A stretch of 47,382 bases of DNA. It comes from a virus. Its lineage: Duplodnaviria; Heunggongvirae; Uroviricota; Caudoviricetes. The notes under the pieces were generated by a model, which was not told where the DNA came from, searched no databases, and saw only the letters and a program-made list of their open reading frames with translations. The stretch lies in the IMG/VR virus record IMGVR_UViG_2684623189_000004. One strand, written 5' to 3'. Each line of letters starts with the position of its first letter. Within the stretch, counting starts at the first letter, position 1. Shown here in pieces: positions 1,286 through 43,020 of this stretch. The translations under genes and the position numbers were made by a program.

Positions 1286-1535
1286 AACCGCAGCACGTTC
1301 TTGCTTAAGACGTGCTGCGGCATAATCCCAATGATTACTCCCTGACAGGGTTCGTAGGCCACTCAATATCAGGTGCAGTTGATGTATCAACACGGTTCAG
1401 CAACACCCGATACTTTTTCCAGGCTTCCAGCAATGAGGTTTCTTCCTCCGTTGCAATTTCCAGATCTGCAGCATCCTGAAGCGGCGCAATATGCTCACTG
1501 GCTACCTGCATCAGGTTGTTTTTTGTTTCTTCCGC
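1286..1535. repeat. direct repeat copy 2 (3' end of intact tfa plus downstream hairpin)
   Basis: matches 236..485; perfect 10-bp stem CCGCAGCACG/CGTGCTGCGG at about 1287..1319. Confidence 0.7.
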
Positions 1536-1919
1536 CTCCCGGATCCGGAACATTTTTTCTGCTTCCGTATCCTTCACCCAGGCTGTGCCGTTCCACTTCT
1601 GAAACTCCCCTTCCGGCGATAACCAGGTAACATTTTCCGGTAACGGACCGAGTTCAGAAATAAATAACTCGTCCCCTGACGCTACGTCATAAACCGTTTT
1701 ACCCCGATGGTCTTCAACGAGATGCCACGATGCCTCATCACTGTTGAAAACAGCCACAAAGCCAGCAGGAATATCTGGTGGTGCAATATCGGTACTGTTT
1801 GCTGGCAGACCTGTATGAGGCGGAATATATGCGTCACCTTCACCAATAAATTCATTAGTTCCGGCCAGCAGATTATAAATTTTTATGGTCCGTGCTTGTT
1901 CACTCATTCTGAATGCCAT
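1335..1919 (-). CDS. tfa: tail fiber assembly protein Tfa
   Basis: 194 aa; immediately downstream of stf; resembles lambda Tfa as recalled. Confidence 0.85.
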
Positions 1920-27385: not shown

Positions 27386-27919
27386 TTATCTGTCGATACC
27401 CCAGCACGCCAGCGCGCTCTCCTGGTCACGACGGGATACCTGACCGTAGCAGTTGTTTGAACGAATACGGCAGTCTCTGCCACCGTCCTTAATCCACCAG
27501 CGAATCGCCTCACACGCTCCCCTGCGATCACCTGCATTAATTCGTTTATAAAACGTCGACGGGAAACACTTACCGGGACCAATGTTGTACGGACAGAATG
27601 ACGCGATCCCCGCTTTCTGGGGTTCGCTCAATGGCACTTTGATGTTTTTCTCCACCCATGCCAGCGCCTTATCACGCTCAATGGCGTTGACCTGGTCGCA
27701 TTTTTCCTTCGACAGTTTCATACCGGGAAAAACGGGTTTTCCATCCACCATCGTGGCCCCCCGACAGATGGTCCAGTTGCCGGAACCATCGCGGTATGCC
27801 GTAGTGTGGTTACCCTCTTTTTCATCCAGAAACTGGTCAAGTATCTGAGGAGCTGATGCGCCTGCTCCAATCAGCGCCAGAACTGCAGCTGACAGGCCGT
27901 ATTTGATTTTTGCGTTCAT
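27386..27919 (-). CDS. R: SAR endolysin (T4-lysozyme-like, phage 21 R type)
   Basis: 177 aa; Gly/Ala-rich weakly hydrophobic N-terminus (YGLSAAVLALIGAGASAPQ) then E...D...T catalytic spacing (KEGNHTTAYRDGSGNWT). Confidence 0.85.
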   Translation of the reverse strand: MNAKIKYGLSAAVLALIGAGASAPQILDQFLDEKEGNHTTAYRDGSGNWTICRGATMVDGKPVFPGMKLSKEKCDQVNAIERDKALAWVEKNIKVPLSEPQKAGIASFCPYNIGPGKCFPSTFYKRINAGDRRGACEAIRWWIKDGGRDCRIRSNNCYGQVSRRDQESALACWGIDR

Positions 27920-28827: not shown

Positions 28828-29095
28828 ACCCCGTCTCCCGTTATCCGGAAGCTGAAAACAATAAAAAAGCCACCAGTTAACTACTGATGGCTCTGATAAC
28901 TCATGCAAGCGTCTCAGACGACCCACTGACACTACCGGTGAGTTTAACGATACCTTCCATTTGACTGGCTCACTTTTTATGATGATGCCGGTGCATTTAT
29001 CTCCAGCGCCAGACTTTCTATCTCAACGCCATACGTTACATTTTTGGTAATATCCATCAGCGTCAGTGCATTTAGTCCCACTGCCAGACTGTCTT

Positions 29096-29323
29096 TTATG
29101 GCCTGGAATGCCGGGCCAGTACGATGACGTAGTACCAATCCGGCTCAGTTGCACCACTGACCACCACATCACCTTCTGCTGCAATCGCCTGCATCAGGGT
29201 ATAAGGGGTTATGGCCACCGGACTACCAAACGGCTGCCAGCCCTCCTTCAGTTTTTGTGTCAGTCGTTTCGCAAGGTCTGACGGCGATACCGCCCTGACC
29301 ACGTCATAGTGTTTAAATGCCAT
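29096..29323 (-). CDS. hypothetical small protein upstream of holin
   Basis: 75 aa ORF; family not recognised. Confidence 0.4.
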   Translation of the reverse strand: MAFKHYDVVRAVSPSDLAKRLTQKLKEGWQPFGSPVAITPYTLMQAIAAEGDVVVSGATEPDWYYVIVLARHSRP

Positions 29324-29544
29324 GAATCCTCCCGGCCGGGATAATATTGTGAGTAAAATAAGGAGCGGGCTGAAGTCCGGAAGTTACAGGACAATGGCAG
29401 AAGAGAGACGACAGCCCGCAATTCGAAAAAGACCGCGCAGTTGCGCAGAGTGATTACTATGGGGTATTATTCGCCAGCTGAAATATTACTTCACGTTTTA
29501 TTGTTTATTCCTTGCCGCCCGCGTCTCCCAGCGCGGGCTTTTTT

Positions 29545-29790
29545 TGCCCACAAGAAAACCCCTCCGGAGAGGGGCTAAAGCCGCGTATCTGTATCATCAT
29601 GCACATGGTGCCGGGTGCCTCCCGGTGAGTTCAGCCCGGTGCCACTAAACCCGCGTCATTCTCGTTTTGATAATCAGAGATTATACCGTCACCAGTCGCC
29701 CCTCCGCTCAGGGGGATTCACCATGCGAAATTTTTTTAACAAATGCCCAGTCTGACAGGCAACTGTCAACTTACTGAATTGTGAGCAACA
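29545..29790. repeat. diverged tandem repeat unit A (ends in GC hairpin plus T-tract on minus strand)
   Basis: shares CCCCTCCGGAGAGGGG, CATGGTGCCGGGTGCCTCCCGGTGA, GCCCCTCCGC.CAGGGGGATTCACCATG, CTGAATTGTGAG blocks with unit B. Confidence 0.6.
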
Positions 29791-30035
29791 TAGCATTTAA
29801 CGGGGAACCTGTTTTCTGCAGTAAAAAGGCCCACCGGAGCGGATGGGCCTGGAAGGATAGCGGTCATGTGATGCCGGTTTCCCGGTAACTCAGCACCGGT
29901 ATCTGAGTCAACGTTTTCTCTACTGGGTCATTTCCGATACGCCCTGCCTGCTGACAGGCTTTCATCACATCTGAAAATATAGCACCCTGACTGATACTGT
30001 AGTACCTAAGGTTCCAGAAACTGTGATGTATCCGG

Positions 30036-30265
30036 CACAGAAAAGCCCCTCCGGAGAGGGGCTGGAGAGTGGCGCTATGTGCCATTGCATGGTGCCGGGT
30101 GCCTCCCGGTGAATTCAGTACCAGCACCTGAATCCGCGATTATCCCATATACCTACTCGCTGATTGCCCCTCCGCACAGGGGGATTCACCATGCCAGTTT
30201 CTTTTAACAAACTCCCCGCAAACCAGACAACAGTCAACCGCCTGAATTGTGAGACATTTAAAAAA
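30036..30265. repeat. diverged tandem repeat unit B
   Basis: same blocks as unit A; immediately downstream (minus strand) of tRNA-Arg(UCU). Confidence 0.6.
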
Positions 30266-30298
30266 AAGCCCGCAAAAGCGAGCCAGGGAAAATAAGTG

Positions 30299-30375
30299 TG
30301 GCGCGTTGTACTGGATTCGAACCAGTGACCGATTGCTTAGAAGGCAATTGCTCTGTCCGGCTGAGCTAACAACGC
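30299..30375 (-). tRNA. argO: tRNA-Arg (anticodon UCU)
   Basis: 77 nt; 7-bp acceptor GCGTTGT/ACAACGC, anticodon loop CCTTCTAAG, T-loop GGTTCGAATCC, 3' CCA. Confidence 0.85.
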
Positions 30376-30388
30376 AGGATACAGATAA

Positions 30389-30466
30389 TGGACCGCCTTC
30401 GGGGACCCGAACTCCGCGCAACCAGCTTCGAAGGCTGGCGCTCTTTCCTGATGAGCTAATGGCGGT
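30389..30466 (-). tRNA. argN: tRNA-Arg (anticodon UCG), atypical stems
   Basis: anticodon arm CCAGC-CTTCGAA-GCTGG, D-arm GCTC...GAGC, encoded CCA; mismatches in acceptor and T stems; exact ends uncertain. Confidence 0.55.
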
Positions 30467-30472
30467 ATGTGA

Positions 30473-30548
30473 TGGTGGCCCTTGCTGGATTTGAACCAGC
30501 GACCTGGCGATTATGAGTCGCTCGCTCTCACCACTGAGCTAAAGGGCC
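30473..30548 (-). tRNA. ileZ: tRNA-Ile2 (anticodon CAU, lysidine type)
   Basis: 76 nt GGCCCTTTAGCTCAGTGG...CTCATAATCG...GGTTCAAATCC...GGGCCACCA; close to E. coli ileX as recalled. Confidence 0.85.
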
Positions 30549-42455: not shown

Positions 42456-43020
42456 CTAACCAACGAAGCTAAGGTTGGTAATTAAGGAGTTCTCCACGGG
42501 TGAGGTGGAGTGCGTGCGCCGGACACGGGTGAGCATCCGGCACTGACAGTTTACTGAAAGGATATTTCCCTGAAAAGTCAGACCATAACGCGAAAGCGCA
42601 CGGCGAGGTAGCTGGTTCATAGATAGCCTGTCGTTAAATTTTCGTCGACCGTGCGCTTCCGGTTGTGGCAATCCGCGAAATGGCGCGGCGGTAAGTATGG
42701 CGGGGTTATTCCTTCCACCGTTGAGGACACCGGGTTGTCAGGTTGACCATACGCTTAAGTGACAACCCCGCTGCAACGCCCTCTGTTATCAATTTTCTGG
42801 TGACGTTTGGCGGTATCAGTTTTACTCCGTGACTGCTCTGCCGCCCTTTTTAAAGTGAATTTTGTGATGCGGTGAATGCGGCTAAGCGCACGCGGAACAG
42901 TTAAAACCAAAAACAGTGTTATGGGTGGATTCTCTGTATCCGGCGTTAATTGTTAACTGGTTAACGTCACCTGGAAGCACCAGGCACCGCATCACAAAAT
43001 TCATTGTTGAGGACGCGATA
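42456..43020 (+). other. 565-bp non-coding, GC-rich, hairpin-dense region in the early-left operon (candidate structured RNA or regulatory element)
   Basis: no credible ORF on either strand; 10-bp stem AAGCGCACGG/CCGTGCGCTT, 9-bp stem GGGTTGTCA/TGACAACCC, 18-bp perfect inverted repeat at 42857..42874 and 42984..43001. Confidence 0.4.

Follow-up and report, generated by a model that had tools for sequence, protein, structure and literature searches.

The late region of a Caudoviricetes genome, IMG/VR virus record IMGVR_UViG_2684623189_000004 (47,382 nucleotides, hereafter the window), carries on its minus strand, in the order of late transcription, genes encoding Q and a DNA methylase, the tRNA genes ileZ-argN-argO, an array of three STnc100-type small RNA (sRNA) units, and genes encoding a DUF1737 protein, a holin, a lysozyme and Rz; the array occupies the moron slot of a lambdoid late region (Table 1). 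A 901-nt region is 100% identical to a prophage in the chromosome of Escherichia coli ATCC 11775 (DSM 30083), for which RefSeq lists an antitermination protein, a hypothetical protein, a DNA methyltransferase, tRNA-Ile, tRNA-Arg and tRNA-Arg before the array and DUF1737 (partial), a class II holin, YdfR, a lysozyme (frameshifted) and a lysis protein after it, while the array itself is annotated without an RNA gene and with one opposite-strand pseudo-CDS (coding sequence). The tRNA cluster lies directly upstream of the array in the direction of late transcription, and its first member, ileZ, is called Met-CAT by ARAGORN and tRNA-Ile in RefSeq.

Investigation of the repeats downstream of the tRNAs revealed three pairs of direct repeats, of 88 nt (29698-29785 and 30166-30253, 80% identity), 31 nt (29604-29634 and 30088-30118, 97% identity) and 28 nt (29549-29576 and 30036-30063, 89% identity). 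The paired blocks, one of each pair in unit A and one in unit B, lie 468-487 nt apart from start to start, so that these two units are not adjacent, and the approximately 277 nt separating them are a third, diverged copy, unit M, with its own terminator. The array thus consists of three head-to-tail minus-strand units in the order B-M-A with a period of about 229-239 nt. An earlier note, made from the letters of the sequence, had described two tandem units sharing three blocks, each closed on the minus strand by a GC hairpin and a T-tract; all three blocks, both hairpins and both units (E 2.4e-36 and 5.3e-30 for A and B in the Rfam scan below) are real, and with unit M between them the number of units becomes three. 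Tandem Repeats Finder, run over 29300-30400, did not detect the array and returned one 11-nt repeat only, because the copies are too diverged.

Table 1. Positions of the array units, their putative signals and the adjoining RNA features in the window.
Feature	Position	Strand	Description and basis
tRNA cluster ileZ (CAT), argN (TCG), argO (TCT)	30299..30548	-	ARAGORN, Rfam tRNA, RefSeq annotation of the identical locus
Terminator-like hairpin closing the tRNA cluster	30267..30284	-	GGCTCGCTTTTGCGGGCT then T8; terminator scan
Unit B, promoter-like element	TTGTCT 30230-30225, N18, TGT-TAAAAG 30209-30201, N6, G30194	-	PasD1 homology
Unit B	30033..30223	-	Full-length STnc100 copy; Rfam RF02076, model R1, comparison with Sp4
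Unit B, parts	Helix P1 start G30194; terminator stem 30063-30044		Linker CAAUGGCACAUAGCGCCACUCUCC
Unit B, linker-specific sequence (probe site)			AAUGGCACAUAGCGCCACUC
Unit M, promoter-like element	TGC-TATATT 29984-29976	-	Extended -10-like, 6-7 nt before P1
Unit M	29816..29994	-	Diverged STnc100 copy; assigned by structure and context
Unit M, parts	P1 start near 29970; terminator stem 29850-29827		P1 AUGUGAUG/CAUCACAU; P5 with GAAA tetraloop; linker ACCGCUAUCCUUCC
Unit A, promoter-like element	TTGCCT 29762-29757, N18, TGT-TAAAAA 29741-29733, N6, G29726	-	PasD1 homology
Unit A	29546..29755	-	Full-length STnc100 copy; Rfam RF02076, R1, alignment to Sp5 and Stx2_95
Unit A, parts	P1 start G29726; terminator stem 29576-29557		Linker UGUGCAUGAUGAUACAGAUACGCGGCUUU
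Unit A, linker-specific sequence (probe site)			AUGAUGAUACAGAUACGCGG
Convergent partner RNA of unit A	29437..29545	+	Terminator 29517-29538, U-run to 29545; AsxR slot of Sp5

Regarding the family assignment, when the whole window was scanned with the Rfam models at their gathering thresholds, STnc100 (RF02076, gathering score 47 bits) was matched over model positions 1-206 in unit A (161 bits, E 2.4e-36, 29755..29546 on the minus strand) and in unit B (136.3 bits, E 5.3e-30, 30223..30033 on the minus strand), at about three times the threshold, and these two units are full-length members of the family. Unit M was matched by the full model in a permissive scan of the region (30.1 bits, E 2.4e-4, 29994..29821). 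The covariance model R1, which was built from the alignment A4 described below, scores 154.8 bits for unit A, 156.2 for unit B and 105 for unit M, which is itself a member of the model. Near the main copies R1 gave further matches, about 120 nt long and scoring 23-34 bits, that are false positives, the tRNA-Arg gene and its terminator, which arise because of the terminator part of the model. The related sRNAs PasA, PasB, PasC and PasD were rejected as the identity of the units by probe matching: the PasD probe or target has at least 8 of 24 mismatches anywhere in the window, and an alignment of PasD with the units has the core alone in common, the units being STnc100 proper.

The element is therefore a catalogued RNA family in a published genomic arrangement and is already known; the three-unit array with its sub-threshold, fold-keeping middle copy, an improved assignment of the promoter and the core's wide occurrence and covariation are minor, incremental extensions. 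The central idea of the earlier note, that the repeats could define paralogous minus-strand small RNAs with intrinsic terminators, proved right, A and B being full-length copies of a family with homologues that are experimentally Hfq-bound and northern-positive. Its alternative, that the repeats are remnants of a known element, is correct as to the known element and wrong as to remnants, since the copies are intact.

The secondary structure was derived with RNAalifold from an alignment of eight copies (A4), comprising units B, M and A of the window, the three units of phage PhiR5_2 and the single copies of Sakai prophage Sp5 and of the Stx2a phage Stx2_95. The consensus consists, in order, of an 8-bp closing helix P1, a hairpin P2, a variable segment, an 8-bp P4, a 5-bp P5 stacked on the 3' strand of P1, a single-stranded linker and the terminator. 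Standard pairs occupy 97.5% of the cells and two-sided changes were detected in 13 of the 35 pairs, compared to 5.1 ± 1.5 pairs in column shuffles (0 of 500 reach 13) and 1-4 in slid controls. Much of this signal is supplied by unit M, in which the P1 strands of Table 1 stand in place of GCAUGGUG/CACCAUGC, CUCAG/CUGAG replaces UUCAG/CUGAA in P4, P5 is CCGG-GAAA-CCGG and the terminator is GGCCCAUCCGCUCCGGUGGGCC; the two alleles of unit M found among E. coli genomes, about 9% apart, again keep the pairs. Single-sequence minimum free energy (MFE) folds of B, M and A have the same architecture (z = -2.9 for unit M). The consensus fold is thus kept by compensatory changes, as expected of STnc100 structures, and the junction formed by the helices is conserved among the three units whereas the linker differs wholly.

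Similarly, an R1 search of IMG/VR gave 123 matches in 80 loci, with 29 of the 35 pairs covarying on 85 distinct sequences, and a search of species-representative genomes gave 81 matches, spread over about 20 or more genera of Enterobacterales (Pantoea, Erwinia and Rahnella among them); in this cross-genus set of 81 copies covariation was seen in 30 of 35 pairs and pairing in 94.8% of cells. These large-set alignments were fitted to R1 and so are biased towards the model, but the margin over slid controls is still large. The sequences of the P2 and P5 hairpins are near-invariant across genera (GGUGAAUCCCCCU.AGCGG.GGGG and CCGGGAGGCACCCGG), the conservation of P5 being partly a matter of ascertainment because P5 served as the search pattern for the cross-genus copies. 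All 92 E. coli-type copies have a terminator within 160 nt past the core, as do 57 of the 72 cross-genus copies.

The position of the array between Q, tRNAs or a moron and the lysis genes recurs in Sp5, Sp4 and Stx2_95. In Stx2_95 and Sakai Sp5, methylase or Q is followed by ileZ-argN-argO, stx2A, stx2B and, about 75 nt past stx2B, one STnc100 copy, which bears out the statement in the earlier note that Shiga toxin (Stx) phages carry stx after these tRNAs; in the window the toxin cassette is absent and the three copies directly follow the tRNAs. Sakai Sp4 has the same toxin-less layout with a single B-type copy nearly identical to unit B, and unit A is closest to the copy after stx2B of Stx2_95, linker included. 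Among 76 IMG/VR loci, 47 of which reach at least 2.5 kb downstream and 73 at least 600 nt upstream, a DUF1737 gene was found downstream in 53, a holin gene downstream in 34, and 47 have a same-strand tRNA gene no more than 1.6 kb upstream. Among 5426 complete E. coli genomes, 2868 match the query at least partly and at least 352 contain the array (≥80% of the query); unit M is present in 672 of them (about 12%), in two allelic forms with 100% and about 91% identity, and also in five phage records. PhiR5_2, with E. coli K-12 MG1655 as its recorded host, has the same three-unit array (138.7, 30.0 and 129.9 bits). The B-M-A triple was found in eight loci of the IMG/VR sample and doubles in several, and tandem amplification is a recurrent trait of the STnc100 family. 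Larger arrays were also observed: an IMG/VR contig (L011, 2265-3380, minus strand) has four tandem copies downstream of tRNAs, all above the Rfam threshold, and a Pantoea plasmid has arrays of 4-5 copies (L183, 892-1988, and L167, 3102-4485, both on the minus strand).

Regarding expression, all evidence comes from homologues. In eight Sakai prophages, pairs of convergent Hfq-bound sRNAs lie downstream of PR' at the moron site (Tree et al., 2014, PMC4104026; such dyads also in PMC7873438), the Sp5 pair consisting of EcOnc27 (sense) and AsxR (antisense) (PMC4104026). EcOnc27 is the STnc100 copy of Sp5, as its northern probe maps within the linker of the 207.7-bit match. It was positive in Hfq cross-linking and analysis of cDNA (CRAC) and gave northern bands of about 235 and 247 nt, the 247-nt species being destabilised without hfq (PMC4104026 supplement). 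Its CRAC peak appears to lie on the last ~80 nt, comprising P5, the 3' strand of P1, the linker and the terminator, which is the usual Hfq module; the peak was placed by means of the 135-nt offset seen for AsxR between the coordinates of Tree et al. and NC_002695.2. EcOnc27 is identical to sRNA103 of strain EDL933, overexpression of which increased the transcript levels of fimZ and espA (PMC7873438, PMC12711010). In EDL933, 11 STnc100 copies are transcribed, STnc100_4 being confirmed by northern blot, and several have ribosome footprints (Neuhaus et al., 2017, PMC5331693). STnc_100 was also detected in outer-membrane vesicles, with an 11-nt match to stxB in silico only (PMC12370729), and STnc100 is among the most abundant annotated sRNAs, its function being listed as unknown (Boutet et al., 2022, PMC9029176). 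The related PasD1 and PasD2 (172-173 nt) are abundant sRNAs in enteropathogenic E. coli (EPEC) data obtained by ligating and sequencing interacting RNAs (RIL-seq), with a predicted seed just before the terminator (Pearl Mizrahi et al., 2021, PMC8550237); PasD and STnc100 have a common fold and a probable common ancestor, and Pas copies are distal, not tandem (Zhu, Shabalina, Storz, bioRxiv 10.64898/2026.05.13.724894).

Terminator-like sites are abundant at the locus, 11 being found in 2.4 kb compared to 2.8 ± 1.8 in shuffles. Promoters were assigned from homology to PasD1 and from positional enrichment because a scan with the sigma-70 consensus found none on the minus strand. According to RNA-seq, PasD1 starts at the G of GCAUGGUG (NC_011601 position 1060260), where P1 begins, 7 nt after a TTGACT-N18-TAAAAA promoter. 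A TGT-TAAAA(A/G) element is present at the same distance from P1 in most E. coli-type copies, and -10-like hexamers are approximately 4-fold enriched 4-9 nt upstream of P1 among 62 unique cross-genus copies. From these sequence comparisons we infer that the conserved TGn-TAAAAA just upstream of P1 is a better promoter candidate than the internal TATAAT of unit A. For starts at P1 the predicted RNA lengths are about 157 nt for B, 150 nt for M and 177 nt for A, and the extended -10-like TGC-TATGTT further upstream of unit A (29795-29787) would yield an RNA of about 231 nt. A sigma-54 motif in the P5 region, sought by eye after a remark on Salmonella RpoN ChIP-exo (chromatin immunoprecipitation with exonuclease digestion) data (PMC10794520), was rejected as its -24/-12 spacing is unfit.

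Two variants downstream of stx2B that are reported to be associated with haemolytic uraemic syndrome (HUS), a T<->C single-nucleotide polymorphism at +90 and a T deletion at +103 (PMC12711010), map to about 3938 and 3951 of the Sp5 sequence (L004) and correspond to window positions ~29741-29727, the TGT-TAAAAA element and the T-run before P1 (numbering ± 1-2 nt). The variants thus fall on the predicted promoter and 5' end of STnc100/EcOnc27 and not on its body.

On the plus strand, a convergent partner RNA has its 3' end abutting that of unit A. Its slot and the corresponding slot of Stx2_95 and Sp4 are 97-99% identical, the northern-probe target of EcOnc08/21/42 matches 29437-29471 with 5 of 35 mismatches, and the window from about 29260 to 29545 is near-identical to Sp4 (columns ~300-580 of alignment A7, the mean column identity of which is 84% as a whole); by homology, probe target, terminator and slot the partner is of the EcOnc08/21/42 type. 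It also resembles the EPEC RIL-seq candidate E2348C_1409.E2348C_1408.IGR. The Sp4 RNA is Hfq-bound and about 271 nt long, expression and length being known for Sp4 only; a partner RNA of that length in the window would begin near 29275 and be antisense to the DUF1737 gene at its ribosome-binding site and start codon (29323). AsxR (RF02703) and AgvB (RF02702), each recognised by a 3' region of about 42 nt, gave no Rfam match at E ≤ 10 in 28900-30320, the same method recovering AsxR in Sp5 (88 bits) and AgvB in L081 (96.5 bits), and the AsxR and EcOnc03 sequences have at least 24 of 51 mismatches in the window, which rules out AsxR and AgvB as the partner. The same slot holds AsxR in Sp5 and AgvB in another phage, and the antisense partner therefore behaves as a swappable cassette. 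A 69-nt plus-strand RNA starting from TTGCGC-N18-TATTAT (29441-29470) is doubtful because the probe target of the Sp4 homologue covers this element, and the RNA probably starts further upstream. An additional terminator-like hairpin on the minus strand (29433-29448, CTGCGCAACTGCGCGG then TCTTTTTCG) is located between the sRNA dyad and the DUF1737 gene; it is kept in Sp5, Sp4 and Stx2_95 and falls inside the sequence of the plus-strand partner.

The DUF1737 gene (29096-29323, minus strand) is "partial" in RefSeq and corresponds in Sp4 and Stx phages to the N-terminus of an esterase of about 600 amino acids (NanS-p-like), and the lysozyme gene rrrQ (27386-27919, minus strand) is "frameshifted" at the identical ATCC 11775 locus, which suggests that the host prophage is at least partly defective. 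Elsewhere in the window, Rfam matches above gathering scores were obtained for an IS009 RNA (1378-1576, minus strand, 223.8 bits) and the sok antitoxin RNA of a hok/sok-type module (35069-35243, minus strand, 113.3 bits).

Since the linker differs wholly while the junction is conserved, we read the array as three separately terminated, Hfq-associated, trans-acting sRNAs with a stabilising scaffold in common and different specificities, and give this interpretation a probability of about 0.72. By analogy with the homologues, each unit would be transcribed in the lysogen from its own weak sigma-70 extended -10 promoter 6-7 nt upstream of P1 and stop at its own terminator, giving an RNA of approximately 150-180 nt, or approximately 230 nt with a start further upstream as the EcOnc27 northern blots indicate. 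The RNAs would bind Hfq through the 3' module of linker, terminator and U-tail, and the linker, in which the predicted PasD seed sits, would pair in trans with host or prophage mRNAs, the conserved junction acting as stabilising scaffold and the array as a set of three specificities. During lytic growth, Q-modified polymerase would read through the terminators, so that the array sequences join the late transcript; in the lysogen the terminators may incidentally insulate the lysis genes.

Several observations weigh against this interpretation, the trans-acting step being its weakest link. None of the STnc100 members has a validated direct target, the fimZ and espA effects coming from overexpression and the stxB pairing from in silico analysis (PMC7873438, PMC12370729). 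In published DESeq2 tables, PasD1 and PasD2 change by log2 fold changes of 0.55 and -0.18 (not significant) in an hfq deletion under the activating condition, and under the non-activating condition the deletion strain has more PasD2 (log2 fold change 2.3, adjusted p 0.08). Transcription of B, M and A is deduced from homologues only (EcOnc27, STnc100_4 and PasD), the consensus promoter scan was empty on the minus strand, and the proposed -35 and -10 hexamers match the consensus at 4 of 6 positions each. The EcOnc27 northern sizes exceed the P1-start prediction by 55-70 nt, and its 5' end may therefore lie upstream or result from processing of a longer transcript. Unit M, taken alone, scores under the gathering score of 47 bits, and the near-invariance of the P2 and P5 sequences exceeds the needs of a mere scaffold.

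This last point leads to the most serious alternative, which is compatible with three trans-acting sRNAs and which we nevertheless hold to be unlikely as the principal explanation: that the multi-helix core is an autonomous RNA domain, serving as a protein or ribosome binding site, a sponge, or a processing or stabilising module, with seed pairing secondary or absent. The junction of about 120 nt (P1, P2, variable hairpin, P4 and P5) might then, tentatively, be an ancient domain of Enterobacterales prophages with its own function, possibly reused to form the body of Hfq sRNAs, arrays of 2-5 copies and a terminator-less leader between dicF and dicB. The strong covariation across genera, the almost invariant P2 and P5 hairpin sequences (P5 partly by ascertainment), the lack of a nearby terminator in about 20% of cross-genus copies, the arrays of up to 4-5 copies and the terminator-less version at 42867-43014 are all in line with such a domain, as is the P5 loop, a perfect Shine-Dalgarno sequence (GGGAGG), together with the ribosome footprints on several EDL933 copies (PMC5331693). 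However, in unit M both of the conserved hairpin sequences are replaced (GAAA forms the P5 loop) and yet the fold is kept, the core has no known binding partner, and the homologues were recovered on Hfq, with the signal placed on the 3' module rather than the core. Were this explanation true, STnc100 would be a structured-RNA class and not a conventional seed-pairing sRNA.

The dicF-dicB core is a fourth STnc100-like core, on the plus strand; 20 nt separate it from DicF (42795-42846), and the dicB start codon (43022) follows about 8 nt after its end. It comprises an 11-bp P1 (GUGAUGCGGUG/CACCGCAUCAC), P2, P4 and a P5 of CCUGG-AAGCA-CCAGG without a terminator, and scores 42 bits with R1 (E 1.8e-10) and 37.7 bits with Rfam STnc100, under the gathering score, with an MFE z of -5.1. 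The same adjacency of DicF and core occurs in E. ruysiae; the paper on dicBF describes no structure at the dicF-dicB leader.

A role in cis is less probable still as the explanation of the array. The units would form a stack of terminators that in the lysogen blocks tRNA or leaky upstream transcription before it reaches the lysis genes and that Q overrides on induction, for which the four consecutive minus-strand terminator-like hairpins from argO to DUF1737/holin, with one more at 29448-29433, and the conserved position between the late promoter region and the lysis cassette are well suited. A terminator needs about 30 nt, however, and the stack leaves unexplained the 120-nt covarying junction before each hairpin, the promoter-like elements and the stable Hfq-bound RNAs of homologues; a cis role can coexist with trans-acting sRNAs. 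It is very unlikely that the extra copies, M above all, are decaying, functionless duplicates, even though unit M lies under the Rfam gathering score and the prophage looks partly defective (DUF1737 partial and lysozyme frameshifted in RefSeq): most positions of M are unlike those of A and B, yet paired substitutions maintain P1, P2, P4 and P5 along with a strong terminator, and M retains an extended -10-like element and occurs as two pair-preserving alleles in 672 of 5426 genomes and in five phages including PhiR5_2.

The version of the earlier note, an sRNA of about 110 nt from the internal TATAAT of unit A, is highly improbable. The perfect hexamer is present at 29685-29680 on the minus strand, some 105-110 nt upstream of the terminator as the note had stated, and unit B has a similarly placed GATAAT; however, the element lies in the most variable segment of the family, is absent from unit M and from the Sp5, Stx2_95 and PhiR5_2 copies in A4, has neither an acceptable -35 nor a TG motif, and a start there would destroy the covarying P1 and P2, whereas PasD1 starts at P1, so that it is probably not the promoter of unit A. 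Finally, small proteins can practically be dismissed: mechanical open reading frames (ORFs) of 33-93 amino acids overlap the units on both strands, hypothetical or pseudo CDSs are listed in GenBank phage records and by PGAP, and an AUG follows the GGGAGG of P5 in A and B, but the block spacings of A and B are 16 and 3 nt apart, so that no reading frame is kept, the AUG next to P5 belongs to P1, is CAC or CAA in other genera and opens an ORF that crosses the terminator, and substitutions track base-pairing, not codons.

The array carries little weight as a discovery, since STnc100 is in Rfam and often annotated and its place beside stx and lysis genes is published. Its tandem arrays nevertheless contrast with the picture of distal copies only for the related Pas sRNAs, and the M subtype escapes Rfam-based annotation yet gives unusually clean compensatory evidence for the fold. 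A conserved 5' domain followed by a variable linker before the terminator shows where seeds should be sought and argues that the scaffold is under selection. The family adjoins Shiga toxin genes and overlaps HUS-associated variants, and the main residual value lies in the role of the conserved junction.

Compared to known systems, the units agree with the single STnc100 copies, including EcOnc27/sRNA103, in family, fold, strand, terminator and place between the late promoter, tRNA or moron slot and the lysis genes; Sp5 and Sp4 have one copy each, whereas the window has three head to tail, without a moron coding sequence and with the middle copy below threshold. With PasD1 and PasD2 (of EPEC E2348/69; EcOnc13 in Sakai) they have in common the P1-P2-P4-P5 core, the place after Q and before the holin gene, and a promoter of the TTGAC(T)-N18-TAAAAA type 7 nt before P1, the PasD RNAs also being Hfq RIL-seq sRNAs, but the 3' part of PasD including the UGUGAG seed and terminator is different and R1 reaches only 36-38 bits. 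Like the EcOnc27/AsxR and EcOnc06/AgvB dyads, unit A and the plus-strand RNA form a 3'-to-3' convergent pair in the same slot; unlike the dyads of Tree et al., the partner is of the EcOnc08/21/42 type, as in Sp4, and not AsxR or AgvB, and the sense side is triplicated. OmrA/OmrB and PrrF1/PrrF2 are likewise adjacent paralogues with a conserved part, a differing remainder and their own terminators, but they are core-genome sRNAs of about 80-150 nt with simple structure and a common seed, whereas the STnc100 units conserve a large structured 5' domain and vary in the putative seed region.

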